In this document: piece after piece, positions 1 to 17,018 of the stretch
How the letters are laid out: each line of letters begins with the position of its first letter
Position numbering within the stretch: the stretch's first letter is position 1
NCBI GenBank assembly: GCA_965217115.1
Contig: OZ244239.1
Location: 1,280,001-1,344,000, forward strand
DNA from: Bdellovibrionales bacterium
GTDB taxonomy: Bacteria > Bdellovibrionota > Bdellovibrionia > Bdellovibrionales > CAYMLA01
Direction of reading: 5' to 3'
DNA: 64,000 bases
Translations under genes and position numbers: made by a program
Notes under the pieces: model-generated
The model's input: the letters and a program-made list of their open reading frames with translations, nothing else
Databases searched by the model: none
Told to the model about the DNA's origin: nothing

Positions 1-1
1 G

Positions 2-958
<957 letters not shown>

Positions 959-967
959 GGGAAGAGA

Positions 968-1363
968 GTGTTTAAATTAACCATAGTTACGCCTGAAAAG
1001 AAAATTCTTATGGATGAAGAGATGTCAGATCTTCTTGTCAGTGGATACAGAGGGGAATTGAATATCCTTCCTGGGCATGCTCCGATGATGACAACTTTAG
1101 AGACGGCCCTCTTACGATATAAGTTAAAAAATGATTCTGATTATAAATCACTGGCAATGAGTTCGGGTTATTTAGAAGTAGATAGCAATGGTGTAAATAT
1201 TCTTGCTGAAACGGCAGAGACGAAAGAGGATATTGATGTGGATAGAGCTAAAGAGAACTTAAAGAAAGCAAACGACCTTTTGGCCAGTGGCGAGTTACAG
1301 GGTAAAGAGCTTGCTAAATATGAGAGAAAGGCCAAAAGAGCGGAGATAAGGCTTTCTCTTTAA
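968..1363 (+). CDS. atpC: F0F1 ATP synthase subunit epsilon
   Basis: LTIVTPEK, GELNILPGHAP, ILAETAE and C-terminal helices; directly after atpD. Confidence 0.97.
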   Translation: MFKLTIVTPEKKILMDEEMSDLLVSGYRGELNILPGHAPMMTTLETALLRYKLKNDSDYKSLAMSSGYLEVDSNGVNILAETAETKEDIDVDRAKENLKKANDLLASGELQGKELAKYERKAKRAEIRLSL

Positions 1364-1381
1364 TTTTTTAGAGTTTAGCTC

Positions 1382-2056
1382 GTGTGGTTGAGGCGTACAG
1401 GGAGAGAATTTATTTTAAAACCGCCTTTAAGAGCGATAGGACTCTTGTTATTTTCGGCTGTTTTATGTCTTTTGTTTTTTGACCAAAAAATAACGTGTTT
1501 TTTTTCTAAAAATGAACCAGAACCTTTTGATTCCATAGCAATGGTTATAACTGATCTTGGCGAAGCGGGTGTATATCTTGCTTTAAGTTTTTTAGGGACT
1601 GTTGTTTTTAAAGTTTTTTCAAGGATAAGTGTTAAAAATAGAGCGAGCCACAAAAAAAAATACGAAGTTTTTTTGATGAGCTTAATTGCGTTTTTATTCT
1701 CTGGTTTTGTGATAACGGTTCTTAAAGTTTTGTTTGGTCGAGAGAGGCCTTATTTTTCGGAGAGTTGTGATCCGTGGGTTTTTACTTGGTTTAACGCCCA
1801 TTGGAATTTTCACTCGATGCCTTCAGGGCATGGGCAAGTTGTTTTTACTTTATGGGCGCTAACTCATTTTTTTAATTGGAAATGGTCTTGGTTTGTTTTA
1901 ATTTATGCCATTTTGATTGGATCCACGAGGGTTGTTATCTTCCGGCACTTTCCGTCGGATGTTTTGGTGTCTTTTGCCGTGAGCTATCTTTGTGTTTGGT
2001 GGCTCTTTTTTAGAAAACAAAAAAAATTATTAAAAGAAAACAATGAACAGCTATAA
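1382..2056 (+). CDS. PAP2-family membrane phosphatase
   Basis: KVLFGRERP, SMPSGH and TRVVIFRHFPSDV are the three PAP2 motifs; hydrophobic segments. Confidence 0.9.
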   Translation: MWLRRTGREFILKPPLRAIGLLLFSAVLCLLFFDQKITCFFSKNEPEPFDSIAMVITDLGEAGVYLALSFLGTVVFKVFSRISVKNRASHKKKYEVFLMSLIAFLFSGFVITVLKVLFGRERPYFSESCDPWVFTWFNAHWNFHSMPSGHGQVVFTLWALTHFFNWKWSWFVLIYAILIGSTRVVIFRHFPSDVLVSFAVSYLCVWWLFFRKQKKLLKENNEQL

Positions 2057-2166
2057 TTTAGTTTTACGAGGGGAGAAGACCCGCTGTCTCGACTTTTGGA
2101 GAGGCTAAGGCGAAGAGTTATTGCTATTAAAAAGACAGACAAAGAAAAAGTAGTTAAAATAAAGCT

Positions 2167-2919
2167 ATGCTAAGGATAGAGAAAAAGAGAAGAATAACAA
2201 AAGGGCTGTTTGCCTTGGTTTTTCTTTTGAACTTCGACGCTTCAATTTGGGCAAATGACTCTCATTCAAACAAAAAAGAAAATCAAGTCATAGACGATGG
2301 ATTGTGGGTTGTGAAAGAGACTGATGGGGGAGCCAGAATTGATGTGGATGGTTTGGTTATTCCTAGGGCCTATGAAGAGAGATATTTGGGATGGGGAACT
2401 CAGTGGAGCATTGGAGTCGGGGCCTTTGGGTGGTTGTTTGATGAACCGAATATAAAAGGGGATCACAGTGAGGTGGGCTTAGGATTTCGTTATGGTTTTG
2501 GTTGGGGAAGTGTCGAGCTTCACTTAGGTTATGGGCTGTTGGAAACAAAAGACCTGGGTCGTGTTGACAATGAAAAATTAACACTGACTTCTATAAAAAC
2601 TTTTCGAGCGGGATTGGCTTATTATGGAGAAAACTTCTTTTTTTCAGATTATTTTTCTCCTTACATAGAAGGAGGAGCCTGCCAATTGAGCTACGCTGTT
2701 GAAGATTCTGAGAGCCAAAAGAGAACGATCTCCTCTAAAGCAGCTCCCTATGTGGCCGTGGGTTTTAACCTGCCTTTGGGTTGGCTTGATAAAGAGAGTG
2801 CTATTTTATCTTATGATGAAATTAGCTTAAGTGATATAGCCCTTTATGTGGAGGCCCAAAAAAAACTTCTCTCAGAAACAGAAGTTTATCTCTCAGGAGG
2901 CTTTAGCCTTATTTTTTAG
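2167..2919 (+). CDS. Hypothetical exported protein, probable outer-membrane beta-barrel
   Basis: Signal-peptide-like N-terminus, alternating Gly/aromatic strands (GLGFRYGFG, PYVAVGFNLPL), C-terminal Phe. Confidence 0.6.
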   Translation: MLRIEKKRRITKGLFALVFLLNFDASIWANDSHSNKKENQVIDDGLWVVKETDGGARIDVDGLVIPRAYEERYLGWGTQWSIGVGAFGWLFDEPNIKGDHSEVGLGFRYGFGWGSVELHLGYGLLETKDLGRVDNEKLTLTSIKTFRAGLAYYGENFFFSDYFSPYIEGGACQLSYAVEDSESQKRTISSKAAPYVAVGFNLPLGWLDKESAILSYDEISLSDIALYVEAQKKLLSETEVYLSGGFSLIF

Positions 2920-3008
2920 CAATGCCTTTGTCACTGTTATTCTCTCTTCCCTTTTTATTGGCTCAAAGAGGGAACCTTAGTTTTTGGGTTTGTTATGGGA
3001 AGGCTTTA

Positions 3009-3044
3009 TAAAAAAACCCCCGTTGTTGATAGGCAACGGGGGTT
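3009..3044 (-). terminator. Rho-independent terminator of the 3074-4243 gene
   Basis: Perfect 11-bp stem aacccccgttg/caacgggggtt (3015-3025/3034-3044); the A-run on + is a T-tail on the minus strand. Confidence 0.85.
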
Positions 3045-3073
3045 CATTAGAATTCTTGCAGACTAACTAGTAA

Positions 3074-4243
3074 TTATAGGCTATTATCGAGGTCTATTAC
3101 AACTTGAATACTGTTGATTTTAGCTTTTCCAAAATCAGGACTGAATTCGATGGATGAAGCATAGTCTTCGATGGTGACAGTGTATATTGGGTCTCTTCCA
3201 GGGACGTAAATTGTTCCCTTATTTTCTTTATTGACGATCACTTCAAACTTTGCATCGTTTCGTACTCCTTCAGCAGCGATGATGAGTTTTTTGATATAAC
3301 GATCTCTATTTCGGAGGGAGACGAAATTTGGATTTCCTTTGGCGACGTAAATAGGACGACTAATTAGAGAGTAGCTACTCGTCCTGTCTTCGTCGAAATC
3401 ACCATTTCTCGGAGGTCTTATATCTCCACAAGAACGATTTGAACTGTGGGAGAGATTTTTAGCTGTGTGGTAGAATCGATTAACGGCGATAACTTCGTTC
3501 GGGTATCCGTAGCTATTTCCAGCTCTGTTGAAGGACTCAAGATCATCAGATAGGCCGTAGAGCCCTTCAATGCGACAAGCGTAGAGATGAGAGTAAATGG
3601 ATCCCTCAAGGTCTTGGGCAGTCCACTCACTCATGTACTGCAGTGATATTAAGAAAGTTCTGGCAGAGCCTTTGGGGTAAATCTGTCCGTTACTTGGGAT
3701 AGCTAGGTGACTAAGAACCATGCGAGTTTGTTCGAAAGCAAAACGAATAAAAGTTCTTTCCATCTTTTCATAGTCACTTTGGCAGTAGCCTCCGTATCTG
3801 TGGCAACGCCGTCCTCGATAAAATGGGCGATCTAATCTGTGGGCCACATTCTTTATAAAATCGTAGTATTTAAAAAGAAAGTAATTAAGAACTCTCAGTG
3901 AATTGGGTTCATGACTGATATGGGTTTCGATGGCATCAGTAATGATGATGCCTCTCTTGATGGACTTGATAGTCAGTGCACCTGAAAGAGAAGGGTCCTG
4001 ATTTTCAGAGGCACTCCTCAGTCCATCTTTTAGGATGGCAATACTGCTAACATGATCGTTAGCTGTGTAATGAACCCAGGCATTGTTCTTAGCTCTATCT
4101 AATAGGTAGAGTCTATTGTGAGACCATTGGGAGAAAGAACTTCTTTGCTGAGATTTAGGAGTTGGATCGGCGTGAGCTAGATGACTGAGTGTCATTAGCA
4201 TGCCAGCAATAAAAATCCCTCCGGATTTGATAAATTGTTTCAT
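3074..4243 (-). CDS. Secreted protein: helical domain paralogous to 6872-7768 plus C-terminal beta-rich domain
   Basis: Signal peptide ending AHA-D, RBS ggagg; motif-by-motif similarity to 6872-7768; C-terminus IKKLIIAAEG...KGTIYVPGRDP recalls Bdellovibrio beta-sandwich domains (from memory, unverified). Confidence 0.75.
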   Translation of the reverse strand: MKQFIKSGGIFIAGMLMTLSHLAHADPTPKSQQRSSFSQWSHNRLYLLDRAKNNAWVHYTANDHVSSIAILKDGLRSASENQDPSLSGALTIKSIKRGIIITDAIETHISHEPNSLRVLNYFLFKYYDFIKNVAHRLDRPFYRGRRCHRYGGYCQSDYEKMERTFIRFAFEQTRMVLSHLAIPSNGQIYPKGSARTFLISLQYMSEWTAQDLEGSIYSHLYACRIEGLYGLSDDLESFNRAGNSYGYPNEVIAVNRFYHTAKNLSHSSNRSCGDIRPPRNGDFDEDRTSSYSLISRPIYVAKGNPNFVSLRNRDRYIKKLIIAAEGVRNDAKFEVIVNKENKGTIYVPGRDPIYTVTIEDYASSIEFSPDFGKAKINSIQVVIDLDNSL

Positions 4244-4288
4244 GTGAAAACCTCCAAATAAAAGATTAAAGTTAGTAATACAGAGCCT

Positions 4289-4370
4289 TTTATAATCTAA
4301 AGGAATATATTTTCACAAGGTTTGAAGGTATTTAGAGGTGACTGTAGTCAGCAGGTGAGTTTTTTACAAT
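4289..4370 (-). promoter_or_regulatory. Putative operator (TGACT-N2-AGTCA, 4339-4350) plus sigma70-like promoter TTGTGA-N18-TATAAA
   Basis: Minus strand reads attgtaaaaaactcacctgctgactacagtcacct, then a -35-like hexamer 20 nt after the palindrome; matches 5808-5889. Confidence 0.6.
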
Positions 4371-4482
4371 CCATGGGGTTTCTGGCAAATGACGACTTTC
4401 TCCATTACTCGACAGGGTATTCGTCTCATCTCTTTAGATTAAAATCAAATAATGAGGAATACGGGGGGTTGTCGGTGATTAT

Positions 4483-5568
4483 TTAATTTGTATTAAGAAT
4501 AAGGACATTAAAGGTTTCTTTGTTCTTAGGAGGAGATTTCCTCAGCACAGAATAAGGGAATTTTTGTTCGATCCAGATATGAAGATATGAATTCCTTTTA
4601 TTTCTTATCTGGTTATAAGTTTGAAAGTCTAAATAAAGAGGAGTGTAAGGAGGGAGATTTTCGTAGGTTTCTTGTAACTGGGGGGGCGACAGCTCTGAGA
4701 GAGAGGCTTTTTGGCTTGTGTGGAGGAGTTGATATTTATTTTTATTCCCATCAATCCAGAAGAGTTTTTTGTTGAGAACGCGAGCTATTTCAAAATGAAT
4801 AAAACTCTCTTTAAAAGAGTGGCATTGCTTCTTATCGAGATTGATAGAAAGAGCGCCCTTTAAAACAGAGTCAATCATTTCTGCCCCTGTAGATGTTCTT
4901 GCCCCTTGAGAGAGAGTCCAAAGGAGGTCGTCTTGGCCACAATTTTTTAGGAGATAGTAGAAATAAAGAAAGTGATGCCCATAGAGTTTTTTGTTTTCTA
5001 GGGAGATATCGTATTGTTCGATTAATGAAGTAGATATATTGTTAAAACTTGCGTGGATGTTATGACTGTTAAGGGTTTTAGTGGCGAGATGTTCAAAGAC
5101 TTGAGCCAAGCCTTCTTTGACCCATGTCTCTTCTCCAGGGTTAAGAATATGGTGTATGGCGTGGAAGTACTCATGGGCTAGAAGTAATTTGAAACTGGAT
5201 TTAAGAAATATTTTAGAATCAATCTCAATTCTCATTCCTTCAGAGTTGGCAATAAAGAGACCGTGTCTCTGGTTTGTTTTTTTAAGAATAATTTTAAGAG
5301 AGTGCTGTTGAATTCTTTTTAGTATTTTCTGAGGGATAAGCGGGTGAACTTGCGTATGTAGAAAGTCCATAGTCGATTGCGCGTGTTGTTTAAGCAGCTC
5401 ATGGGCTTGGAGAGAAACCTTATCTGTCTCTAAGTTTTCTATTTCAATACGAATATGGGGAGATGAGTAGAGGCTAGCGCCCTGGGCGAGGGAGATAAAA
5501 ATGATATTAACTCCCGTCAGAAAAAAAAACGAGAAGGTAGATAAGAGTGTAAAAGATCTTTTTATCAA
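4483..5568 (-). CDS. Exported zinc metallopeptidase-like protein (gluzincin type)
   Basis: LAHEYFHAIH (HEXXH) followed by WVKEGLAQ (third Glu ligand); hydrophobic N-terminus. Confidence 0.75.
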   Translation of the reverse strand: MIKRSFTLLSTFSFFFLTGVNIIFISLAQGASLYSSPHIRIEIENLETDKVSLQAHELLKQHAQSTMDFLHTQVHPLIPQKILKRIQQHSLKIILKKTNQRHGLFIANSEGMRIEIDSKIFLKSSFKLLLAHEYFHAIHHILNPGEETWVKEGLAQVFEHLATKTLNSHNIHASFNNISTSLIEQYDISLENKKLYGHHFLYFYYLLKNCGQDDLLWTLSQGARTSTGAEMIDSVLKGALSINLDKKQCHSFKESFIHFEIARVLNKKLFWIDGNKNKYQLLHTSQKASLSELSPPQLQETYENLPPYTPLYLDFQTYNQIRNKRNSYLHIWIEQKFPYSVLRKSPPKNKETFNVLILNTN

Positions 5569-5807
5569 TTGATAACTCCTAAAAAAAAGTACTCACGCCA
5601 CGATGGATGATTAATTTTGGTGATGACTATGAGTTCGCAATAAGTATATCAGAATTCTTGTGCACATGTTGTTCTCAAGGGAGATTTTATAAAAAATACA
5701 GGGTTGGTTTAGGGGAAAATTGCTCTGAACTTCTCACAAATGGGATGTCAGATGGCCATTAACCATTAGATCAGTCACAGACTTCCCCTGATTTCTTTTT
5801 AAGGGAA

Positions 5808-5889
5808 ATTGTAAAAACTACAGGTGCTGACTGCAAGTCACCTGAAAAGGTTTCAAAAATTTGCAATTAATCATTACGTAGTTCATAAA
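5808..5889 (+). promoter_or_regulatory. Putative operator (TGACT-N3-AGTCA, 5828-5840) plus sigma70-like promoter TTGCAA-N17-CATAAA
   Basis: attgtaaaaactacaggtgctgactgcaagtcacct; -35-like hexamer at 5861, 20 nt after the palindrome; matches the 4289-4370 element. Confidence 0.6.
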
Positions 5890-5924
5890 GGGTCATCAGT
5901 TACAAAAAACTAAAGAGGAATGCT

Positions 5925-6875
5925 TTGGAAATATTGATGGATAATGAAAAACAGGAAAATGAGTTGAGTCATAAGGAAGGCCAAAAGAAGCCTTCTGTTT
6001 ATGAATATATAAGTTTCCGCCGTTTTTTAAAAGAGAGTTATGAGCATCTAGCTTCTAAGAACTCTTCTTTTAGTGAATCGGCTTTTATGAGAAAAGTGGG
6101 ATATAGTACCAGTAGTCGTGGTTATTTTAGCCTTATTCTTAAGGGAAAGAGAAACTTAAGTCACTCTTCTGTTTTGAAGTTTTCTAAGACATTGAAGCTC
6201 TCTAAAAGAGAGACAGATTACTTTGAGAGTCTTGTTTTCTTTAATCAAGCTCAGAATGAAGAGGATAAGAGTTATTATATGGATAAGATGTCTCAGTTCA
6301 TAAAGGGTAAAGAGACTGAAGGGTATGAGCTTTTAAAGAGCCAGCACAACTACTTGTCAAAATGGTATCTCGTAGCAATTAGAGAGATTGTTGTGCTCGA
6401 CGATTTTGTGAATGATGAAGAGTGGATTGCTAAGAGGCTGCGCAATAAAGTGAGTAAGAGAGAAGTTCGAGAGGCGATCAATGACCTTCTTCGTTTGAAG
6501 CTTTTGAAGTTCGACGAGGCGAGAAACCTTTGTCAATTAGACCCGGTGGTGAATTTTTTGGACAATGAGTTGAATCATACAGTCGTCAGTGGAATACATA
6601 AACAGTACTTAAATAGAACCGAAGAGTTGTTAAGTGAAGACAGTTACAATCACCGTAGCGCCAGTTCTGTGACAATTTCTTGTTATGGCGAAGATTTTTT
6701 AAAGATAAGAGAAGAAATTATCAAATTTAGAGAACATATTATTAATAAATACGGAACTCGAGATCAAAGTATGGATACCGTTTTACACATGGGAATACAG
6801 TTGATTCATTTAACTGAGCCTGACTGTGTTAATGGGAGTGGCGTTGATGAGAGTCATAAGGAGAAAATAGGATGA
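5925..6875 (+). CDS. TIGR02147-family protein (N-terminal HTH-like domain plus DUF4423-like domain), putative regulator
   Basis: Y.SFR.FLK..Y, LILKGKRNLS, E.DYFESLVFFNQA, YLSKWYLVAIRE, WIAKRL and AI..L.RL.LL match the pattern of this family. Confidence 0.85.
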   Translation: MEILMDNEKQENELSHKEGQKKPSVYEYISFRRFLKESYEHLASKNSSFSESAFMRKVGYSTSSRGYFSLILKGKRNLSHSSVLKFSKTLKLSKRETDYFESLVFFNQAQNEEDKSYYMDKMSQFIKGKETEGYELLKSQHNYLSKWYLVAIREIVVLDDFVNDEEWIAKRLRNKVSKREVREAINDLLRLKLLKFDEARNLCQLDPVVNFLDNELNHTVVSGIHKQYLNRTEELLSEDSYNHRSASSVTISCYGEDFLKIREEIIKFREHIINKYGTRDQSMDTVLHMGIQLIHLTEPDCVNGSGVDESHKEKIG

Positions 6876-7768
6876 AGTGGGTTTGCGAAAAAAAGAATTG
6901 TTTAATGTTCGTGTTTAGGAATTTGTCCAAAGTACTCTTGGTCTTTCTTTTGTGTTCCAGTTCAGCGGTGGGGCTTGAAACACCTTTTCTTTCTTCTGGA
7001 ACAAACATTGGTGGAGGTAATGAGTCCATTGATTTTGTAGCAACTTGGTGTCAGGAGGCCGTATCGACATTAAAGGAACATAAAGAGAGTGCTAAAATAC
7101 AGGTTCATCAGGGGAACTATCACACGGCTTCTTTGACTTTGGTCAGTGGTTTAGTTCGGGCTTTGGAGCAGAGCCAATCAGAGAATAATTACCTATTTAC
7201 TTATAAGGCCCTCTTAAGGGGTTTGAGTTTGGCAGAATTCCTTGATGTGGGAAGGGTTGATAAAAGTAGTTTTGAAAAAGAAGCGACTTATAATCTACTC
7301 AGAAGTTATTACGATTTTGTTATTGAGACTGTCGCTAGGGATTTAGATTTTGATGTGTACATTCCTTATCTTAGATGTGTTGATTGTGAATTGCATGATG
7401 CAGATCATTTTGAGCGTCGTTTTGTGAATTATGTTGTGAAGCAGTTGAGTTATATCCAAAGGACTTTAGTCAATGTGATCCATAGGGAAGGATATATAGA
7501 AATAACCCCTATAGGACCTGAGAGTTACTATTTAAAATCGATGGAGTTCTTTGCTCAGTACACGGCGGAGGATTTAAAGAACAGTCTTTGGAAGCAGCGT
7601 TTTAGTTGTGTGATTAGTGAGCTTAAGTCTTTAAATGGTAAACTTCAGCACTACAATCAGGGCAATACATCACTGTATCCAGACTCTCGTATTGCAGTCA
7701 ATATGGTGGGGAATCAGGTTTATAGAATTATTTCTCGTCTAAGGACAGAGGCAAATTGTTATTATTAA
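6872..7768 (+). CDS. Secreted helical-domain protein, paralog of 3074-4243
   Basis: Signal-like hydrophobic stretch then SSGTNIGGGNE; overlaps the regulator stop codon (ATGA); shares motifs with 3074-4243. Confidence 0.75.
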   Translation: MKWVCEKKNCLMFVFRNLSKVLLVFLLCSSSAVGLETPFLSSGTNIGGGNESIDFVATWCQEAVSTLKEHKESAKIQVHQGNYHTASLTLVSGLVRALEQSQSENNYLFTYKALLRGLSLAEFLDVGRVDKSSFEKEATYNLLRSYYDFVIETVARDLDFDVYIPYLRCVDCELHDADHFERRFVNYVVKQLSYIQRTLVNVIHREGYIEITPIGPESYYLKSMEFFAQYTAEDLKNSLWKQRFSCVISELKSLNGKLQHYNQGNTSLYPDSRIAVNMVGNQVYRIISRLRTEANCYY

Positions 7769-7802
7769 GTTTAGAATTTATATATCTTAGGAGGATATCG
7801 CA

Positions 7803-8669
7803 ATGAAACATTTAATTTGGACAATGGTTTTTTATGTAGGTTTGATAATGCAGGGGCAGTTGGTCATGGCGTTTTCTTTACAAGAAGGCACTTATAAGGG
7901 GTCACATTACGACTCTTTAAAAAAAGGGAAGGCGGCTGTTTACTTAATGTTAAAGCCAGTCTCAGGAAGGGAAGGGAGCTTTCTTGCTGTTCTAATGAAG
8001 AGTAAGAAAAGAAAGAAGCAAGTGTCTTTTTATGTGATGGACTTGGCGTCAAAATTTTCTTACTCTCTAACCCCCCTTGATGTGACCACTGATGGACAAA
8101 TAGGTATTATCAATGATGACCCCAGTCTTGTTTTGTCGATGAGTACAGGAGAGAAGAATAAGTACTCCATTAAGATAACATCGAGCAATAGTGGCAATAC
8201 TAAGGGTTTTTCAGGGTATATGGTGTTTGAGGAAAGATCAGATAATTACCAGTGGATTGCTAATGGAGCTGGTAATTACAACTATGCAGGTCGAAAAAAC
8301 GCATTACAAATTTCTAGCTGGGATATTCTGGAAGGAGAGGCAGATGCCATTTTCACAACAGCTTCATTGAACGGGTCCTTTAAGATCAGTGAAAGTTTTC
8401 CTCAAATGTATTTAATCAATGCCAACAAGGTTTTAGCTACTGGCAGTAAAGTGGATTCTATCCCACGTAAAATAGGTTTCTTTATTAAAGAGAAAGGAGA
8501 ATGGTCGGGTAAAAAAGAGTGTTTTGTTCTGGTCAACCCAGAGAATGATAGAGATGTTATGACTTTTACGACGGGAAGTAGTGGGTCGAGTTCTTGGTTT
8601 AGTGGAGATTCAGGAACCTTTGATGATGATGATAATGATGGCGGGATGAGAGGTTCCGGACGAAAATGA
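7803..8669 (+). CDS. Secreted hypothetical protein (beta-rich, Gly/Ser/Asp-rich tail)
   Basis: RBS aggagg, signal peptide ending VMA-F, 288 codons. Confidence 0.7.
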   Translation: MKHLIWTMVFYVGLIMQGQLVMAFSLQEGTYKGSHYDSLKKGKAAVYLMLKPVSGREGSFLAVLMKSKKRKKQVSFYVMDLASKFSYSLTPLDVTTDGQIGIINDDPSLVLSMSTGEKNKYSIKITSSNSGNTKGFSGYMVFEERSDNYQWIANGAGNYNYAGRKNALQISSWDILEGEADAIFTTASLNGSFKISESFPQMYLINANKVLATGSKVDSIPRKIGFFIKEKGEWSGKKECFVLVNPENDRDVMTFTTGSSGSSSWFSGDSGTFDDDDNDGGMRGSGRK

Positions 8670-8742
8670 TCACAATTGGAACTAAATGAATTAAGAGGCT
8701 CCATTGAAGTTAAACAGAGAAGACATTAAAGAGGAAGATATT

Positions 8743-10398
8743 ATGAAAATCTTAAGCAAAGTGAAGAGAGTTTTAAAAAAGGGAAGTGTGTTGACTTTGT
8801 CCATGTCTTTGTTTTTAGGGTTGAGTTTCTCCCAAGCGGAGATTGCCGGCAATTTAGGCGGCAATTTAGGTCTTAATCTAGGTATTAATATTGAAGCCGT
8901 GCTCAATGAAGGGACTCAAGTTGAGTTATCTCAAGAGCAGATATCAGAGATACTCCCCTGGGCTAAGAACTCGAAGATTTTCCTAGAGAATCTTCTTGAG
9001 GATGTGGCAGGTTTGCGTAAGGCAGAGCAATTACAGCAGTTGAAGGGAGGTATTCGAGATGTGGTTTTAAAAAGTGCCCCTAAGAACACTGAACTTTTAA
9101 TGCGTTATGTGTTGAACCGTTCAATGAAGCTTGTTGATGTGATCTCCACTGAATCAGTTTCTGGTGATCGGGGAATTATGAGCAATCAACTTCGCCTACT
9201 TAAAAGAAGTGTTGAGATGGCTTTGGGTTATTATAAGAGTGATCTGTCCTACTTAAATGGTGAGGATGACAGTGAAGACCGTGTTTCTTTTGGGGTCTTT
9301 GGATTGGAGTATTCTGTGTTTTTAGCAGATTTAGGAAAATCGATCTTAGATGCATCGGCTCAATATAAAGTTATAAGAACGGGTTTAGGTTTTCTGCAAT
9401 GGGATCTTTATAGGGATCAGAACAATAAGTTATTTGCTCCATCGATTATGTCGTTAAATAACGTCCTAAAGGCGAATCCTGAAGACGTAGAAGCCAGTGA
9501 TCAGAATTACCTAGAGAGAATTCGTCAGTTAAAGAGGGTTTACAAAAAACAAAAAAACAGTATCGTGCAAAAGTTAAGAATAGCAGGCGTGCAAGTGAGA
9601 AAAGAGAGAAGGAAAGAGCGGGGAGTTTCTTCAAGTGTGCTCCAAGCTCTTTTTGTAAAGGTAGAGCCGGGTAGGTTTCAGATGGGAAGTTCCACTCGTG
9701 AAAAAGGTCGTTATGATGATGAGACCCAGCATGAAGTGACTTTAACGAAAGGTTTTGAGATGCAAGCGACAGAGGTCACTCAGGAGCAATGGTTTGAAGT
9801 CATGGGCGATAGCCCCTCCGACTTTAATAAAAAAACATACTGTGAAGATTCTTTTAAGGATGTGGATGGGACTCCACTATGCCCTCAACATCCTGTGGAG
9901 AACATTTCTTGGAAAGATGTTCAGGATTTTATACGTGAGTTAAATATATTAAGTTCTACTCATACTTATAGATTACCGACTGAGGCCGAATGGGAGTATG
10001 CGGCCCGTGCAGGGACGAAAACCCCTTTTAATTTAGGGGGAGATATCTCTCCAGAGAGAGTGAACTATAATGGTGATGAGCCTTATAGAGGTGTTAAAGG
10101 TCTTAATAGAAAACAGACAGTCGCGGTGGCTAGTCTTGATAATGCGAATAGATGGGGTCTTTATGATATGCACGGTAACGTGTGGGAATGGGTGAAGGAC
10201 CGATACACTAAGTACCCCGATAGGCCTATGATAAATCCAAATCTCTTGAATCGCCCACGCTCACAAGTTGTTTTGCGTGGTGGTGACTGGGCATCCAAAG
10301 CTAGGCACATGCGGTCGGCGATGCGTCTTAACAGCGATTATTCTTGGAGCGACGAAGACGGCAGTGCGGGCTTCCGTCTTGTGAGGACTGCCAAATAG
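8743..10398 (+). CDS. Secreted protein: conserved helical N-domain plus FGE-sulfatase-like (CLec fold) C-domain; putative DGR target
   Basis: Start after RBS aaagagg; signal peptide ending SQA-E; F.MGS, EVTQ.QW, PVENISW, YRLPTEAEWEYAARAG, GLYDMHGNVWEW, VLRGG.W, GFRLVR. Confidence 0.9.
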   Translation: MKILSKVKRVLKKGSVLTLSMSLFLGLSFSQAEIAGNLGGNLGLNLGINIEAVLNEGTQVELSQEQISEILPWAKNSKIFLENLLEDVAGLRKAEQLQQLKGGIRDVVLKSAPKNTELLMRYVLNRSMKLVDVISTESVSGDRGIMSNQLRLLKRSVEMALGYYKSDLSYLNGEDDSEDRVSFGVFGLEYSVFLADLGKSILDASAQYKVIRTGLGFLQWDLYRDQNNKLFAPSIMSLNNVLKANPEDVEASDQNYLERIRQLKRVYKKQKNSIVQKLRIAGVQVRKERRKERGVSSSVLQALFVKVEPGRFQMGSSTREKGRYDDETQHEVTLTKGFEMQATEVTQEQWFEVMGDSPSDFNKKTYCEDSFKDVDGTPLCPQHPVENISWKDVQDFIRELNILSSTHTYRLPTEAEWEYAARAGTKTPFNLGGDISPERVNYNGDEPYRGVKGLNRKQTVAVASLDNANRWGLYDMHGNVWEWVKDRYTKYPDRPMINPNLLNRPRSQVVLRGGDWASKARHMRSAMRLNSDYSWSDEDGSAGFRLVRTAK

Positions 10399-10457
10399 TC
10401 ATGAATTAAGAGGCTCTATTTAAATTAAACAGAGAAGATATTAAAGAGGAATATATT

Positions 10458-11639
10458 ATGAAAATCTTAAGCAAAGTGAAGAGAGTTTTAGAAAAGGCAA
10501 GTGTATTGACTTTGTCCATGTCTTTGTTTTTGGGATTGAGTTTCTCCCAAGCGGAGATTGGTGGCAATTTAGGTAGTAATTTAGGTCTTAATCTAGGTAT
10601 TAAGATTGAAGCCGTGCTCAATGAAGGAACTCAAGTTGAGTTATCTCAAGAGCAGATATCAGAGATGCTTCCCTGGGCTAAGAACTCGAAGATTTTCCTA
10701 GAGGATCTTCTTGAGGATGTGGCAGGTTTGCGTAAGGCAGAGCAATTACAGCAGTTGAAGGCAGTTATTCGAGATGTGGTTTTACAAAGTGCTCCTAAGA
10801 AGACTGAACTTTTAATGCGTTATGTGTTGAACCGCTCAATGATGCTTGTTGATGTGATCTCCAATGAATCGGTTTCTGGTGATCGAGGAATTATGAACAA
10901 TCAACTTCGGCTGCTTAAAAGAAGTGTTGAGATGGCTTTGGGTTATTATAAGAGTGACCTGTCCTACTTAAATGGTGAGGATGACAGTGCAGATCGTGTT
11001 TCTTTTGCGGTCTTTGGCTTGGAGTATTCTGTGTTTTTAGCAGATTTAGGAAACTCGATCTTAGATGCATCGGCTCAATATAAAGTTATAAGAATGAGAT
11101 TAGGTTTTTTACAGAATAGTCTTTATAGGGATCAGAACAATAAGGTATTTGCTCCATCAATTATATCGTTAAATAACGCCTTAAAGGCGAATCCTGAAGA
11201 AGTAGAAGCCAGTGACCAGAATTACCTAGAGAGAATTCGTCAGTTAAAGAGGATTTATGAGAAACAGAAAGCTCATATTGTACAAGAGTTAAAAGAGATG
11301 AAGTATGATATCAGTAATTTTGAGTCACAGGAAGTCGAAAGAGAAAACTATAGGAATAGGAGAGAAATTGACAGGAAGAAGATGAAAAAAAAGATGAGAA
11401 AAAAATACTACAGTTGTAGAAACGTAGAGAGAGGGAGTCGTTTCGATTTTGCCCGTTATGATAAACGCGATAACGCTCAAAAATGTATAAAAAAATATGC
11501 AAAATTTATCTCTACTGGAGATTGTCGCTACAGCCTTGGATTTACCCGGCCATTTCTCAATTATTCAATCTACTCATTTATCCCCGCAAAAGTTTTTGTG
11601 AAGGATGTTATGGACACTTGTCGTAGATACGTAAAATGA
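10458..11639 (+). CDS. Secreted protein: same N-domain plus unrelated basic, Cys-containing C-terminal domain
   Basis: N-terminal ~280 aa near-identical to neighbours; unique ~113-aa Lys/Arg-rich tail with 4 Cys. Confidence 0.88.
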   Translation: MKILSKVKRVLEKASVLTLSMSLFLGLSFSQAEIGGNLGSNLGLNLGIKIEAVLNEGTQVELSQEQISEMLPWAKNSKIFLEDLLEDVAGLRKAEQLQQLKAVIRDVVLQSAPKKTELLMRYVLNRSMMLVDVISNESVSGDRGIMNNQLRLLKRSVEMALGYYKSDLSYLNGEDDSADRVSFAVFGLEYSVFLADLGNSILDASAQYKVIRMRLGFLQNSLYRDQNNKVFAPSIISLNNALKANPEEVEASDQNYLERIRQLKRIYEKQKAHIVQELKEMKYDISNFESQEVERENYRNRREIDRKKMKKKMRKKYYSCRNVERGSRFDFARYDKRDNAQKCIKKYAKFISTGDCRYSLGFTRPFLNYSIYSFIPAKVFVKDVMDTCRRYVK

Positions 11640-11745
11640 TAATAAAATAGTTTTAGTCGTCCGAAAAGGATTATAATTGGAACGAAATGAATTAATAGAG
11701 GCTCCATTTAAATTAAACAGAGAAGATATTAAAGAGGAATATATT

Positions 11746-13353
11746 ATGAAAATCTTAAGCAAAGTGAAGAGAGTTTTAAAAAAGGCAAGTGTATTGATTT
11801 TGTCCATGTCTTTGTTTTTGGGATTGAGTTTCTCCCAAGCGGAGGAGATTGCCGGCAAATTAGGTAGTAATTTAGGTCTTAATCTAGGTATTAAGATTGA
11901 AGCCGTGCTCAATGAAGGAACTCAAGTTGAATTATCTCAAGAGCAGATATCAGAGATGCTTCCCTGGGCTAAGAACTCGAAGATTTTCCTAGAGGATCTT
12001 CTTGAGAATGTGGCAGGTTTACGTAAGGCAGAGCAATTACAGCAGTTGAAGGCAGTTATTCGAGATGTGGTTTTACAAAGCGCTCCTAAGAAGACTGAAC
12101 TTTTAATGCGTTATGTGTTGAACCGCTCAATGATGCTTGTTGATGTGATCTCCAATGAATCGGTTTCTGGTGATCGAGGAATTATGAACAATCAACTTCG
12201 GCTGCTTAAAAGAAGTGTTGAGATGGCTTTGGGTTATTATAAGAGTGACCTGTCCTACTTAAATGGTGAGGATGACAGTGCAGATCGTGTTTCTTTTGCG
12301 GTCTTTGGCTTGGAGTATTCTGTGTTTTTAGCAGATTTAGGAAACTCGATCTTAGATGCATCGGCTCAATATAAAGTTATAAGAATGAGATTAGGTTTTT
12401 TACAGAATAGTCTTTATAGGGATCAGAACAATAAGGTATTTGCTACATCGATTATATCGTTAAATAACGCCCTAAAGGCGAATCCTGAAGACGTAGAAGC
12501 CAGTGACCAGAATTACCTAGAGAGAATTCGTCAGTTAAAGAGGGTTTACAAAAAACAGAAAAATCATATCATGCAAGGGTTAAAAAGAGCAGGCGCGCAA
12601 GTGAGAAAAGAGAGATGGAAAGAGCGGGGTGTTTCTTCAAATGTGCTCCAAGCTCTTTTTGTAAAGGTAGACCCGGGTAGGTTTCAAATGGGAAGTTCCA
12701 TTCGTGAAAAAGGTCATTTTGAGGATGAGACCCAGCATGAAGAGATTTTAAAGAAAGGTTTTGAGATGCAAGCGACAGAGGTCACTCAGGAGCAATGGTT
12801 TCAAGTCATGGGTGATAGCCCCTCCTACTTTAATAAAAAAACATACTGTGAAGATTCTTTTAAGGACGTCGATAGAACTCCACGATGCCCTCAACATCCT
12901 GTGGAGAACATTTCTTGGAATCATGTTCAGGATTTTATAAAGGAGTTAAATAAATTAAGTTCTACTCATATTTATAGATTACCGACTGAGGCTGAATGGG
13001 AGTATGCGGCCCGTGCAGGGACGAAAACCCCTTTTAATTTAGGGGGAGATATCTCTCCAGAGAGAGTGAACTATAATGGTGACAAGCCTTATAAAGGTGT
13101 TAAAGGTCTTAATAGAAAACAGACAGTCGCGGTGGCGAGTCTTGATAATGCCAATAGCTGGGGCCTTTATGATATGCACGGAAACGTGTGGGAATGGGTG
13201 CAGGACTGGGGCAGCTATGAGTGGTACCGTGTTTTGCGTGGCGGTGGCTGGCCGAACCCCGCTTGGCGCGTGCGGTCGGCGGCGCGTACTAATCGGGAGA
13301 AAGGTTCGATTCACCGAGCTGTGGGCTTCCGTCTTGTGAGGACTGCCAAATAG
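11746..13353 (+). CDS. Secreted protein: same N-domain plus FGE-sulfatase-like (CLec fold) C-domain; putative DGR target
   Basis: Same leader, RBS and motifs as 8743-10398; differs strongly only in the last ~50 codons. Confidence 0.9.
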   Translation: MKILSKVKRVLKKASVLILSMSLFLGLSFSQAEEIAGKLGSNLGLNLGIKIEAVLNEGTQVELSQEQISEMLPWAKNSKIFLEDLLENVAGLRKAEQLQQLKAVIRDVVLQSAPKKTELLMRYVLNRSMMLVDVISNESVSGDRGIMNNQLRLLKRSVEMALGYYKSDLSYLNGEDDSADRVSFAVFGLEYSVFLADLGNSILDASAQYKVIRMRLGFLQNSLYRDQNNKVFATSIISLNNALKANPEDVEASDQNYLERIRQLKRVYKKQKNHIMQGLKRAGAQVRKERWKERGVSSNVLQALFVKVDPGRFQMGSSIREKGHFEDETQHEEILKKGFEMQATEVTQEQWFQVMGDSPSYFNKKTYCEDSFKDVDRTPRCPQHPVENISWNHVQDFIKELNKLSSTHIYRLPTEAEWEYAARAGTKTPFNLGGDISPERVNYNGDKPYKGVKGLNRKQTVAVASLDNANSWGLYDMHGNVWEWVQDWGSYEWYRVLRGGGWPNPAWRVRSAARTNREKGSIHRAVGFRLVRTAK

Positions 13354-13469
13354 TCATGAATTAAGAGGCTCTATTTAAATAATGCCTTAAAGATGAGACC
13401 TGAAAAAGCACAAATTAAAGATTAGGGACAAAGAGTGAGAATGTTTTTTAAGAAGAGACTGATCTTTGA

Positions 13470-16400
13470 TTATAAAAACAATTCAGGGAGTTTTTGGTAA
13501 ACAGATGACCAAGACATATTGTCCATTTGTACGGCGATTTTATGACTACCTACGAGAGTGACAGAGCCTTTTTTCTGTTTGGAAGTTTTTTTGACGAGAG
13601 CTAAAATAGTCTCAGATTTAATGGAGGTGTCTCGTCTAAAAGTAATGGAGAGATTTTTCTTTCCACTAGAGATGTCGGTGATATAAAGTTTTTTACAAAG
13701 ACTTCGTATAAGCATCAGGCCTATGAGGTTAATAACGGGTTCAGGTATTGAACCAAATCGATCCTTAAATTCGTCCTCTATGGTGTCAGCATCCTCTTCG
13801 CCTCGAATCTGTGTGAGTTTTTTGTAGTAGGCTAGACGAGTGCGAATATCTGGAATGTACTTATTAGGAATAAGGGCTGCAATGCGGAGATTTATTTCTG
13901 GTTCAAAACTGTTTTCTTCAAGTTCCTCTCCTTTTAATTTTTGGATTTCCTGTTTGAGAAGATCCATGTAGAGTTCATACCCAATGGAGGAGACCTGTCC
14001 TGATTGATCTTGTCCGAGAATATTTCCAGAGCCCCTTAGTTCAAGGTCGTATTGAGCGATGAGAAGACCGCTGCCAAAACGGGTGTTTTCTTGAATAATA
14101 CGTAATCTCTCTTGGGCCAGAGGCTCAATGGTCTTGTCTTTTGGTATAAGCAGATAACAATAAGCCTTTTGATGACTGCGACCAACTCTTCCACGCAATT
14201 GATAAAGTTGGCTTAAACCAAAGGTATGGGCGTTATCAATAAAAAGAGTGTTGGCTTGTGGAATATCAATGCCCGATTCAATAATTGTTGTGCAAACGAG
14301 AAGATCTACTTCGTGTTTAAAGAAACTCAAAATAGTTTTTTCCAAACCTTTTTCATCCATTTGCCCGTGACCGACAGCGATTTTTATTTCAGGTAAAAGC
14401 TCTCGTAGTTCGAGAGCAACCTGATTTATAGACTGTACGCGGTTGTGAAGAAAGAAAACCTGGCCATCACGAGCGACCTCAGCAAGAACTGCCTTGCGAA
14501 GAGTTTCTTTTTCAAATCGAGTGATAAAAGTTCTTATTGGCTGACGATTTAAGGGCGCCGTATTGATAAGGCTTAGGCTGCGCAGTCCAGAAAGGCTTAA
14601 GTTTAAGGTGCGTGGAATAGGGGTGGCCGACATAGCAAGAGTGTCGATGACGTTTTTGAGTTTACGAATTTTTTCTTTATGGGCGACACCAAACTTCTGT
14701 TCTTCGTCAACAACAAGTAAACCAAGATTTGCAAAGTGAATTTTCGAGCTAAAAACTTTGTGAGTTGTGATTAAAATATGAACATCACCACTGTTAATAG
14801 CATTAATTGTTTTATGAATATGTTTGTTAGACATAAAACGATTGAGGAGCTGTATGTTAAAAGGCCAATTTTTAAATCGTTTTTTAAAGGTTTCATAATG
14901 TTGAAAGGTAAGGACTGTCGTCGGAGCTAAAATGACAACCTGTTTGCCATCTTTAGCTACGCGAAATGCGGCTCGCATGGCGACCTCTGTTTTTCCAAAG
15001 CCGACGTCTCCACACAAAAGACGATCCATGGGTTGCTCTTTAGAGAGATCCTCTTGAATTTCACCGATGGCTTTTTGTTGGTCGACAGTTTCTAGATAGG
15101 GGAATTCTTTTTCGAAGAGCTCGTAATCCTGATTTAGCGCAGAAAAAGGGGGCCTTGTTATCTGGGCTCGTTTGGCATAAATACTTAGTAATTCTGAGGC
15201 GAGGTCCTTTAAGTGTTTCTGTGTTTTACTTTTTGTCTCCTGCCATTTTTGACCGCCCAGTTGATCTAATATAACAGACTTGTCGGGTCCTGAGTATTTT
15301 TGTAAAAGACCAACACGGTAGGTGGGAACATAAAGTTTATCCTGTTTTTTGTAGGTGAGTTCTATAAATTCATTTTCGACCCCTTCAATAGAGATCATTT
15401 TAAGACCATGGTAAAGACCAATACCGTGTTCAATATGGACAACGCTGTCCCCTATTTTGAGATCACCAAAACTAAGTAGGCTGGCGTTTTCTTGAAAACT
15501 TTGGTGGGCTTCTTTTTGTCTGTTGACGAGAGCCTTGCGTCCGAGGAGGTCTTTTTCTTGGATAAGCACAACTTTATCATCCATGTTGTGTAGAGTCTCA
15601 GAGATTTGCCCCTCAAGAATATGTATAAGAGGGACCTCCGATTGATTTTGCTCCTCAAACCATTGATTCCAGTGACGGTCTTTTTTTGGAACAAGTTTGT
15701 ATAAGAAGCCCATTTGTTTAAAAAGAGCTTGGACTCTTTCAAACTGGTTATGGTGACTGATACAGGCAAAAATAAAGCAACCCTGTTCCTGCCAGTGAAC
15801 TATTTTTTGGGAGAGTTTGTCCTGCCAAGGAGAGTTGTCATTTTCCCTGTGAATATTTCTTAATTCAGAGGGGTAACGGGAGCGAAGGGAGACGGAGTCT
15901 GGGTTCCCCTCGGTTTGGCTATCCTGAATACTCATGACCTGAACTGTTGTGACCAAAACAGTGTTGTGGTTTTTTATAAGAAGCTCTTCACTGTAGGGAC
16001 TGTAAAAAAAATGACTTGGATACTGCAAGGTTTCGATTGGAGCCTGAGCTTGCTCTATTTGAAGATCAGAGAAGAGAGTGTCGGCCTGGCGTGTGATTGA
16101 AAGGGGATCAAAAAGCCATAAACAGCGCTCGGGGTGGATAAAATCGAGGGGAGTTCCTGGTTTATTATAGGCAACGGGTAAGTAAAATTCAAAGCCAGGG
16201 AAAGTGCGCTCTTGGCTTAAATTTCGAACTTGGTGCTTAATCCAATCAGCACTGGCTTGGGGGTGTCTCCATTTATGAAATCGCTGGATGGTTTCCTCTA
16301 AGGAATCTCCGTCGTAGAGGACTTCTCGAGAAGCTATAATATCTATTGAATCGATTTTGTTTTGCGATCGTTGAGTATCAAGGTTAAAGAAGCGGATGGA

Positions 16401-17018
16401 ATCAATCTCATCACCAAAGAATTCAATTCGAACAGGAAGAGAATAAGAGGGAGTGTAAATATCTAGAATACCACCTCTAATTGAAAACTGCCCAATATCC
16501 TCAACGCTTGGAGAGTGAATGTAACCGAGTTTTTTAAGCTCTTGGGCAAAGCCGGGGATTTCATTGCCAACGGACCATTTGCTTTGGGTGCTCTTAAAAA
16601 GAGGCTGGGGAATTGTTTTTTGGAGAAAAGCATTGATGGGGGCGATGAGAATGTTTTTTGCTAAATTTTGTTCAGCTAAATAAAGCCAATGAAGGCGTTC
16701 GGCTGCTGTGCCAGGAGAGGAGCTGAGTCCAGAATAGGGAGACACATCCGTCGCTTTAAGGATGTTGCAGGAGATATCTGGGTCAAAAAAGAAAAGATCT
16801 TCTTTTAGGCGAAAGGCTTCTTTTTCTGATGAAACAAGAACGACGTGGGAAAGGCTTGATTGGAAGGATAAATCACTTAAGGAGGCGGCGAGTGTTGGAA
16901 TCGAGCTGTGTCCATGAATTTCAAGGGAATGTTTTTTATGGGAAGAATCAGAGTTGGGAGAGAGCAGTTTCTTGCTCAAAACCCCAGAAGATCGCCAAGA
17001 TAAAGATGAGTAAAGCAT
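13470..17018 (-). CDS. mfd: Transcription-repair coupling factor
   Basis: GQFSIRGGILD, VVHIEHGIGLY (RID), DRLLCGDVGFGKTEVA, VVDEEQKFG, SATPIPRT, QLRGRVGR, TRG motif. Confidence 0.98.
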   Translation of the reverse strand: MLYSSLSWRSSGVLSKKLLSPNSDSSHKKHSLEIHGHSSIPTLAASLSDLSFQSSLSHVVLVSSEKEAFRLKEDLFFFDPDISCNILKATDVSPYSGLSSSPGTAAERLHWLYLAEQNLAKNILIAPINAFLQKTIPQPLFKSTQSKWSVGNEIPGFAQELKKLGYIHSPSVEDIGQFSIRGGILDIYTPSYSLPVRIEFFGDEIDSIRFFNLDTQRSQNKIDSIDIIASREVLYDGDSLEETIQRFHKWRHPQASADWIKHQVRNLSQERTFPGFEFYLPVAYNKPGTPLDFIHPERCLWLFDPLSITRQADTLFSDLQIEQAQAPIETLQYPSHFFYSPYSEELLIKNHNTVLVTTVQVMSIQDSQTEGNPDSVSLRSRYPSELRNIHRENDNSPWQDKLSQKIVHWQEQGCFIFACISHHNQFERVQALFKQMGFLYKLVPKKDRHWNQWFEEQNQSEVPLIHILEGQISETLHNMDDKVVLIQEKDLLGRKALVNRQKEAHQSFQENASLLSFGDLKIGDSVVHIEHGIGLYHGLKMISIEGVENEFIELTYKKQDKLYVPTYRVGLLQKYSGPDKSVILDQLGGQKWQETKSKTQKHLKDLASELLSIYAKRAQITRPPFSALNQDYELFEKEFPYLETVDQQKAIGEIQEDLSKEQPMDRLLCGDVGFGKTEVAMRAAFRVAKDGKQVVILAPTTVLTFQHYETFKKRFKNWPFNIQLLNRFMSNKHIHKTINAINSGDVHILITTHKVFSSKIHFANLGLLVVDEEQKFGVAHKEKIRKLKNVIDTLAMSATPIPRTLNLSLSGLRSLSLINTAPLNRQPIRTFITRFEKETLRKAVLAEVARDGQVFFLHNRVQSINQVALELRELLPEIKIAVGHGQMDEKGLEKTILSFFKHEVDLLVCTTIIESGIDIPQANTLFIDNAHTFGLSQLYQLRGRVGRSHQKAYCYLLIPKDKTIEPLAQERLRIIQENTRFGSGLLIAQYDLELRGSGNILGQDQSGQVSSIGYELYMDLLKQEIQKLKGEELEENSFEPEINLRIAALIPNKYIPDIRTRLAYYKKLTQIRGEEDADTIEDEFKDRFGSIPEPVINLIGLMLIRSLCKKLYITDISSGKKNLSITFRRDTSIKSETILALVKKTSKQKKGSVTLVGSHKIAVQMDNMSWSSVYQKLPELFL

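Follow-up and report, generated by a model that had tools for sequence, protein, structure and literature searches.

What does a block of exported proteins gathered beside a single regulator gene do in a bacterium from the phylum that holds Bdellovibrio and Bacteriovorax? The question is raised by a window of 64,000 nt (positions 1,280,001 to 1,344,000 of the forward strand of contig OZ244239.1, assembly GCA_965217115.1), taken from a Bdellovibrionales genome that consists of a single 2.17-Mb contig with 39.6% GC. Nine genes lie in this window between an outer membrane protein-like gene at 2167-2919, the label of which is weak (PF13505, 21.3 bits, under the cut-off of 28.7), and mfd at 13470-17018, which was identified at 995.6 bits. 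The locus is laid out as a divergent operon pair, with H and then A' on the minus strand and T-A-X-B1-B2-B3 on the plus strand. An earlier look at the letters and open reading frames (ORFs), referred to here as the sequence-only reading, had placed a regulator, an HExxH peptidase and six other exported proteins at 3074-13380, and this gene set was borne out: the seven proteins other than the regulator T all have hydrophobic, signal-peptide-like N-termini, as judged by eye.

This locus represents one instance of a cluster that has been conserved throughout the phylum, and the function that I infer for its module is most likely that of a locally regulated set of docked, exchangeable ligand-binding heads. 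The arrangement, in which H diverges from T-A-X-B(n), was found in at least eight families of the phylum. A profile of the B domain matched 10 of 151 genomes sampled within the order (9 of 69 genera) and 25 of 201 sampled across the phylum (20 of 118 genera); the distribution of the cluster is patchy but wide. The sequence-only reading had expected homologs to be linked repeatedly to TIGR02147 genes, and this is what was found: T lies within ~3 kb of B in seven of the ten order-sample genomes that hold B, being the best or second-best TIGR02147 scorer among 5-45 matches in each of the seven (genome G049 was too fragmented for the distance to be judged), and the full arrangement returns in five of eight loci from other families. 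Within the order, locus L024 reads T-A-X-B, while H diverges from T-A-X-B-B-B in L025, from T-A-X-B in L027, and from T-A-X-B with B cut by the contig end in L028. The five loci from other families all have H divergent from T as well, followed by A, X and eight B genes in L044, by A, a gene at the X position and three to five B genes in L045-L047, and by two A genes, a gene at the X position and one B gene in L050. The distant genes at the X position were missed by the X profile and nevertheless align with X (94.7% probability, E 6.2e-8, 217 columns).

Fifteen further loci were drawn from genome contigs of Bacteriovorax, Bacteriovoracaceae, Bacteriovoracales, Bdellovibrionales or 'Deltaproteobacteria' metagenome-assembled genomes. 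X stands directly 5' of B in 9 of the 12 Bacteriovorax-type loci that could be assessed; X-B is taken as the core module, many copies of which stand alone. The genes upstream of X in Bacteriovorax loci (an APH kinase, an AdoMet decarboxylase and a spermidine synthase) were considered as further members and set aside as housekeeping genes outside the cluster. No published description of the A/X/B module was found. As a separate observation, every gene of the cluster in the window is closer to Bacteriovorax-type versions (L035, L038, L048) than to those of its own order (L024-L028), with identities of 51% against 23-31% for T, 42-46% against 12-16% for X and 42-47% against 20-27% for B, which may reflect transfer of the whole cluster. 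L050 (genome G065) also holds, within its positions 1-5177, five tandem paralogs of 186-420 aa that lie 3' of a single tail-less B gene and begin with a leader followed by SGPSG(D/E)QEATK.

One 8-helix domain unites A, A' and the first 230-280 residues of the B proteins as remote homologs. A' (3074..4243, minus strand) is an exported protein with this domain at about residues 38-255 and a conserved, beta-rich C-terminal domain of ~110 aa, and A (6872..7768, plus strand) is an exported 8-helix protein without an extra domain, the gene of which overlaps the stop of T by 4 nt; the two match each other in BLASTP with 26% identity (E 3e-18). Between A-type and B-type proteins no BLAST similarity was found, and the link comes from profile comparison with hhalign, which gave 92.5% probability and E 4.8e-7 with small alignments, and 96.1% probability and E 2.9e-9 over 179 columns with 115 B sequences. 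B ORFs of other genomes also cross-match the A profile, if weakly (E 1e-4 to 2e-7). AlphaFold models of A (predicted local distance difference test, pLDDT, 80.2; predicted template modelling score, pTM, 0.76) and of the B N-domain (pLDDT 86, pTM 0.80) both place eight helices after the leader, and both models have their best structural match in the same chain range of the same designed repeat protein, 6fes_A (Z 13.6 and 11.4). A Foldseek search of the PDB with the model of A returned nothing at E<=1e-3, wide VIA-align searches with A and B returned designed or generic helical bundles only, and the modelled fold as such says nothing about function. The earlier statement that up to five proteins share a helical domain is thus upheld by BLAST for A' and A, by profiles for A and B and by the two models, and the profile link and the 8-helix models likewise speak for a structural relationship among the helical domains, which had been named as the point on which the proposal could fall.

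Exchange of C-terminal parts is a property of the B proteins. An exhaustive profile search with the B domain returned at least 529 clusters (50% identity) at E<=1e-3, 435 at E<=1e-10 and 181 at E<=1e-30, and tails were analysed for the best 150 of the 529 matches. In all 150 the domain starts at residues 1-59 of proteins that are 157-704 aa long, and 126 of them carry a tail of at least 50 aa. The 124 tails of at least 60 aa fell into 68 BLAST groups, the largest with 21, 11, 6, 6 and 5 members and the others smaller still, 54 being singletons; the predicted variety of C-terminal domains is therefore present among the best 150. An eight-gene B array in genome G229 alone has tails from seven groups. 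When representatives of the 68 groups were searched against Pfam, 60 had no match of any kind and six had tails above cut-off (FGE-sulfatase, RCC1, ankyrin, HEAT twice and Laminin_G_3), all of binding type, while the helical domain had no match above cut-off and a single sub-threshold one to UTP15_C. The B domain is accordingly followed by FGE/C-type-lectin folds, RCC1, HEAT, ankyrin, ConA-like lectin and many unnamed Cys-rich or repeat modules. A search for homologous proteins with A gave only 2 relatives, and full-length orthologs of A' from four Bacteriovorax-type loci are 35-38% identical with a conserved C-terminal block. A and A' are fixed, single-copy members with conserved ends that stand outside the swappable series, so that the notion of a constant carrier with exchangeable tips holds for the B proteins and fails for A and A'.

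X (7803..8669, plus strand), which the sequence-only reading had treated as a mere exported protein, turned out to be a conserved partner and the best candidate for a dock. It belongs to an exported family without a Pfam match, shares 42-46% identity with the Bacteriovorax genes directly 5' of B, and shows alternating hydrophobic stretches in the alignment that suggest a beta-rich fold; an ESM Atlas search with X gave a best score of 0.81 and no named family. Complex prediction for X (residues 24-258) with the B helical domain (residues 50-280) yielded ipSAE values of 0.74, 0.74 and 0.71, with 0.00 for the best of three controls. Among reference cases, 116 of 157 solved complexes attained this mark, as did 2 of 215 mismatched pairs, a calibration that is rough here because the alignments were author-built. 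At least 84% of the contacts recur between runs, the partner pLDDT is at least 80, and the predicted interface coincides with the most conserved motifs of both proteins, namely 199-205 (DASAQY) and 252-264 in B and 53-59 and 95-105 in X. Binding of B by X is supported by these predictions and not demonstrated by them. Since neither the helical domain nor X is represented in Pfam, both merit family models.

T (5925..6875, plus strand; 316 aa) has no signal peptide and combines an N-terminal helix-turn-helix (HTH) of XRE/C-protein-like type with a C-terminal DUF4423 domain. It scores 191.1 bits against TIGR02147 (cut-off 50) over model positions 3-271 of 272, which makes it a full-length member and confirms at NCBIfam level what had been called TIGR02147-like, and 81.2 bits against DUF4423 (PF14394, cut-off 30). 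A profile of 11 T orthologs matched the restriction-modification controller protein C.BclI (PDB 2b5a_A) at E 0.001 over positions 42-94, the predicted HTH, and C.AhdI at E 0.44; a PDB sequence search using T alone gave nothing useful, and an ESM Atlas search with T returned DUF4423 clusters only. The TIGR02147/DUF4423 family is without an assigned function. TIGR02147 goes unmentioned in the full-text literature searched, a search that did not extend to supplementary files, and DUF4423 occurs there in a single paper, only as an entry in a proteomics table, for Bd3700, which is up during growth in prey. The source genome itself has 8-13 TIGR02147 paralogs at 12 places (e.g. genome positions 877847-878725, 1792077-1792841 and 1972747-1973532), most of which adjoin small ORFs with leader-like N-termini or share a few bases with them, and for this reason the pairing of such a regulator with exported proteins appears to be general in this genome.

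A putative operator would tie T to the other genes. The sequence-only reading had noticed an operator-like motif common to two units of the locus, and a repeat scan confirmed it as a 28-nt inverted repeat (4343-4370 and 5808-5835) within ~45 nt that are common to the regions ~100 nt 5' of A' and of T when read toward the genes. Each copy has a palindromic core: TGACT-GT-AGTCA (TGACTGTAGTCA, 4339..4350), 96 nt 5' of the start of A', and TGACT-GCA-AGTCA (TGACTGCAAGTCA, 5828..5840, of the form GACT-N3-AGTC), which lies in the divergent region between H and T, 97 nt 5' of the start of T, and is flanked by CAGGTG/CACCTG. The pattern TGACT-N2-3-AGTCA occurs four times in the 2.17-Mb genome where ~5 copies are expected by chance, and these two are its only intergenic copies, the other two being inside ORFs. 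Promoter-like hexamers (TTGTGA-N17-TTATAA and TTTGCA-N17-TCATAA) stand 25-35 nt 3' of the palindromes; they were picked out by eye and are absent from the list of a consensus scan.

The motif was also found at clusters elsewhere. A relaxed pattern, [GC]TGACT-N3-4-GT[CA], had 15 matches in 21 related loci (241 kb), 13 of them in front of a same-strand T, A', X or B gene at a distance of 70-137 nt, and such sites precede some B genes without X too. A strict 18-nt pattern had six matches in five whole genomes, every one adjoining cluster genes, while its reversed control had none in the same genomes. A related motif stands 5' of X/B modules in Bacteriovorax genomes, and the common palindrome at these dispersed modules, together with that at the two units of the window, supports the co-regulation proposed earlier. 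In a separate instance, the H-T intergenic regions of L025 (~6780-6800) and L028 (~3040-3065), which are from different families, have the palindrome CGTTCCC-N6-7-GGAAC in common; its presence in place of GACT-N3-AGTC would fit co-variation of regulator and site.

The three B genes of the window show how a head may be exchanged. B1 (8743..10398, plus strand) encodes a signal peptide, the 8-helix domain to about residue 280 and an FGE-sulfatase domain of C-type-lectin fold; B2 (10458..11639, plus strand) has the B-type helical domain followed by an unrelated basic tail of 106 aa with four cysteines; and B3 (11746..13353, plus strand) again joins the helical domain to an FGE-sulfatase domain. 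A 57-nt leader with a ribosome-binding site at 8686..8742 (plus strand) has copies at 10401-10457 and ~11687-11745, and its first 30 nt occur once more 3' of B3 (13350-13380), marking the unit of tandem duplication. Over the leader and the first 280 codons the genes are 93-98% identical in DNA, which makes them very recent copies; their helical domains are 89-96% identical over 280 aa (95% for B2 and B3), and the similarity of B2 ends abruptly at about codon 279. To judge from these alignments, B1-B3 are recent tandem duplicates with one replacement of the tail, in B2. DNA contigs assembled from four runs of one sample break inside the repeat array and provided no usable joints. The only relative of the B2 tail in its own genome is the end of a 377-aa exported protein at genome positions 201533-202666 (minus strand; 29% identity, E 1.3e-8), the N-terminal part of which has no match to the A or B profiles.

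The heads of B1 and B3 match PF03781 (FGE-sulfatase) at 163.4 bits (E 1e-47) and 140.1 bits (E 1.3e-40), respectively, with a cut-off of 23.3. Catalytic FGE has a cysteine pair just after an RGGS motif, and the final 60 or more residues of B1 and B3 are free of cysteine; both proteins also score far under the cut-offs of the PvdO, EgtB, SenA, GldK and GldJ NCBIfam models. Along their first ~1500 nt the two genes diverge at 6.6-7% of positions, and at the very end at none of 45, while a cassette of ~170 nt at ~13200-13310 of B3, coding for the final loops of the FGE fold, has mismatches at 48 of 119 aligned positions along with three indels. The heads had been called hypervariable, a description that fits this cassette near the 3' end of B1 and B3 and does not fit the remainder. 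Nine further FGE-sulfatase ORFs lie in the same genome, in two arrays and one single gene (genome positions 95850-100277, 1720884-1722485 and 2157355-2166485; L004-L009). Most of them have a lipobox-like N-terminus (LLFGCST) and differing N-terminal modules, and all nine end in GFRLVRT, with strong variation in the same last loops as in the B cassette.

Such a cassette invites the explanation that the heads are diversified by a diversity-generating retroelement (DGR), as it sits at the DGR variable-region position of the fold (RGG.W ... RSA.R ... GFRLV), has one 63-nt stretch in which 9 of 11 adenines of B1 are changed in B3, and is followed by a conserved 30-nt 3' end that is common to other FGE paralogs. 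I give this explanation next to no credence and reject it, because mismatches across the whole cassette are spread over all four bases (A 16/25, C 14/29, G 8/38, T 10/27) with no specificity for adenine and come with indels, because no template-repeat-like copy was found anywhere in the genome, and because its single reverse transcriptase lies ~575 kb from the B array, beside an HTH gene. This enzyme (L001, genome G000, positions 1867139-1870675) has 315 aa (PF00078, E 2.6e-12) and is followed by a 104-aa HTH_3 protein, and it looks like a retron- or abortive-infection-type defence element instead of a DGR. The idea that a dedicated conserved DNA element marks the 3' end of FGE genes was also considered and discarded, since codon sharing at conserved residues (0.6-0.9) runs along the whole FGE domain and not along the 3' end alone, which also counts against a DGR. 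Recombination between paralogs or diversifying selection is the likely cause of the divergence.

H (4483..5568, minus strand) is divergent from T and encodes an exported protein with HEYFH and, downstream, WVKEGLA. It scores 39.1 bits (E 6.8e-10) against the MXAN_6640 HExxH family (NF045524), below the cut-off of 140, so that its sequence supports a zincin-like peptidase and falls short of assignment to this family; a PDB sequence search with the H profile gave only a match to neutral metalloprotease at E 0.075. The HExxH motif is conserved in five of six aligned loci, and H adjoins T in L024, L025, L027, L028, L044-L047 and L050.

These parts can be assembled as follows. T would be a cytoplasmic regulator with an HTH most like that of the restriction-modification controller (C) proteins, and as a dimer it probably binds GACT-N2-3-AGTC just 5' of the promoter-like hexamers of its own operon and of A'. 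Binding to both palindromes would make the locus a small self-controlled regulon, in which T may control its own operon, the H-A' unit and, in Bacteriovorax, the dispersed X-B modules. After Sec export, the constant helical domain of the B proteins would dock on the beta-rich X, so that a single X dock would offer alternative ligand-binding heads, either within the envelope or extracellularly, with A, A' and the peptidase H as invariant components that would serve structure or processing. The most likely role, and the weakest step of the scheme, would be to let a predatory bacterium recognise surfaces, for instance prey envelopes, or adhere to them. For a self-regulated regulon of exported proteins in which a helical docking domain joins many alternative heads to X for recognition or adhesion, I put the chances slightly above even. 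A bolder version, in which X, A, A' and H (as a maturation peptidase) form the fixed core of a so far unrecognised heteromeric extracytoplasmic recognition apparatus that takes heads from a large exchangeable library through the 8-helix dock and is switched on by a C-protein-like autoregulator at its own operator, seems possible but rather doubtful.

Several observations weigh against this scheme. The helical fold matches only generic or designed bundles, in a range deemed uninformative for helical proteins, and the complex score for X and B is the model's own confidence and not a measurement. T is a putative binder of the palindrome with a weak HTH match (E 0.001), the spacing of the palindrome differs between the two copies in the window (N2 and N3), and the Bacteriovorax version has an imperfect right half (AGTAG). 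Linkage is not universal either: the closest TIGR02147 gene is 41 kb away from B in G036 and 18 kb away in G077, and among the 15 Bacteriovorax-type loci T was found within the flanks in one (L035) and any of T, A and H in three (L031, L035 and L038). Lastly, tails of ankyrin, HEAT and RCC1 type could belong to intracellular effectors no less than to adhesins.

The last point leads to a different explanation, namely an effector or polymorphic-toxin-like system in which the helical domain serves trafficking or adaptor binding, X is a chaperone or adaptor, and the tails are effectors delivered into prey. A constant N-domain with variable C-domains, tandem arrays and a conserved small partner encoded 5' are all in keeping with it, and tails with ankyrin, HEAT or RCC1 repeats are characteristic of effectors whose site of action is the interior of another cell. 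Polymorphic toxins are recognised by a toxin domain with an immunity gene, whereas the 68 tail representatives contain no toxin or enzyme Pfam family and their named tails are binding folds, the B genes in the arrays abut or overlap with no intervening small ORFs and hence no room for immunity genes, and the leaders are ordinary N-terminal ones of Sec type. I regard effector delivery as unlikely, with the proviso that the unnamed tails could still hide activities.

The module could also serve the housekeeping of the cell's own envelope or periplasm, with H perhaps processing the A and B proteins and the tails binding the cell's own envelope polymers, all under the local regulator. All parts are Sec-exported and the peptidase is always present, and FGE-fold proteins are also known as structural lipoproteins, which agrees with the weak, sub-threshold GldK/GldJ matches of the FGE domains and with the mostly lipobox-like nature of the other FGE ORFs in the genome. 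The diversity of the tails and the tandem expansion point instead to a diversifying use, and a core envelope function does not fit a cluster as patchy as this one, seen in the order and phylum samples described above, so that I hold this explanation to be quite improbable. That the block is no functional system at all and merely reflects local duplication of orphan genes beside a regulator would account for the near-identity of B1-B3 as very recent copies, and it is very hard to square with five gene families kept in the same order across those eight or more families of the phylum and with their common upstream motifs; its probability is minimal.

The control of the proposed docked-head regulon would resemble that of restriction-modification systems, where C.BclI is the closest solved sequence match to the N-terminus of T. 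The published C-box consensus is GACT-N3-AGTC-N4-GACT-N3-AGTC, and the operator core found here, GACT-N2-3-AGTC, corresponds to its half-operator GACT-N3-AGTC (PMC2175313). The site stands just 5' of the promoter-like -35 hexamer of the regulator's own operon, as in the autogenous circuits of C proteins. The differences are that C proteins have ~75-80 aa and consist of the HTH alone, while T is four times longer with its additional DUF4423 domain; that C-boxes are two tandem palindromes, with a single palindrome at each site here; and that the genes that T would control encode secreted proteins instead of a nuclease. If the scheme is true, this would be the first defined regulon for the TIGR02147 family.

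The heads of B1 and B3 recall the variable proteins of DGRs, which include proteins of FGE-type C-type-lectin fold from the same PF03781 family with the variable stretch at the same C-terminal position in the fold (PMC5758913). B1 and B3 differ in having no DGR machinery or template repeat and in substitutions that are not specific to adenine.

The docking resembles the cohesin-dockerin system of the cellulosome, in which functional modules are joined by one constant docking module to a beta-rich partner. B and X would follow a similar logic, with many different modules, one constant dock and a beta-rich partner. There is no relation in sequence or fold; the constant module here, a helical domain, is large, one site alone is predicted on X, and the tails are binding domains and not enzymes.

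How predators recognise many kinds of prey is still largely an open question, and the MAT fibres are the only described repertoire. These fibre proteins of Bdellovibrio bacteriovorus combine an invariable N-domain, proposed to bind an unidentified surface element, with swapped C-terminal tips, and form a multi-gene repertoire (PMC10769870). MAT and B proteins are alike in being exported, in keeping the N-domain that follows the signal peptide constant and in exchanging their C-terminal binding domains; one MAT tip has a C-type-lectin fold (PMC10769870). MAT proteins have ~1000 aa with a beta-rich N-domain of ~130 aa, a trimeric beta-prism shaft and a demonstrated surface location (PMC10769870), while the B proteins come with X, A, A', H and a TIGR02147 regulator. 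With their 157-704 aa, an 8-helix N-domain (pLDDT 86) and no shaft, the B proteins do not belong to the MAT fibres. If the recognition apparatus is real, it would be a second system for the choice of prey or surface that is structurally unrelated to MAT fibres. In the B family, with its at least 529 clusters, the phylum has a second, structurally unrelated repertoire of constant anchors and swapped tips, and the predicted dock X with its named interface residues, the operator sequence and the candidate TIGR02147/DUF4423 regulator offer the handles by which it can be approached.

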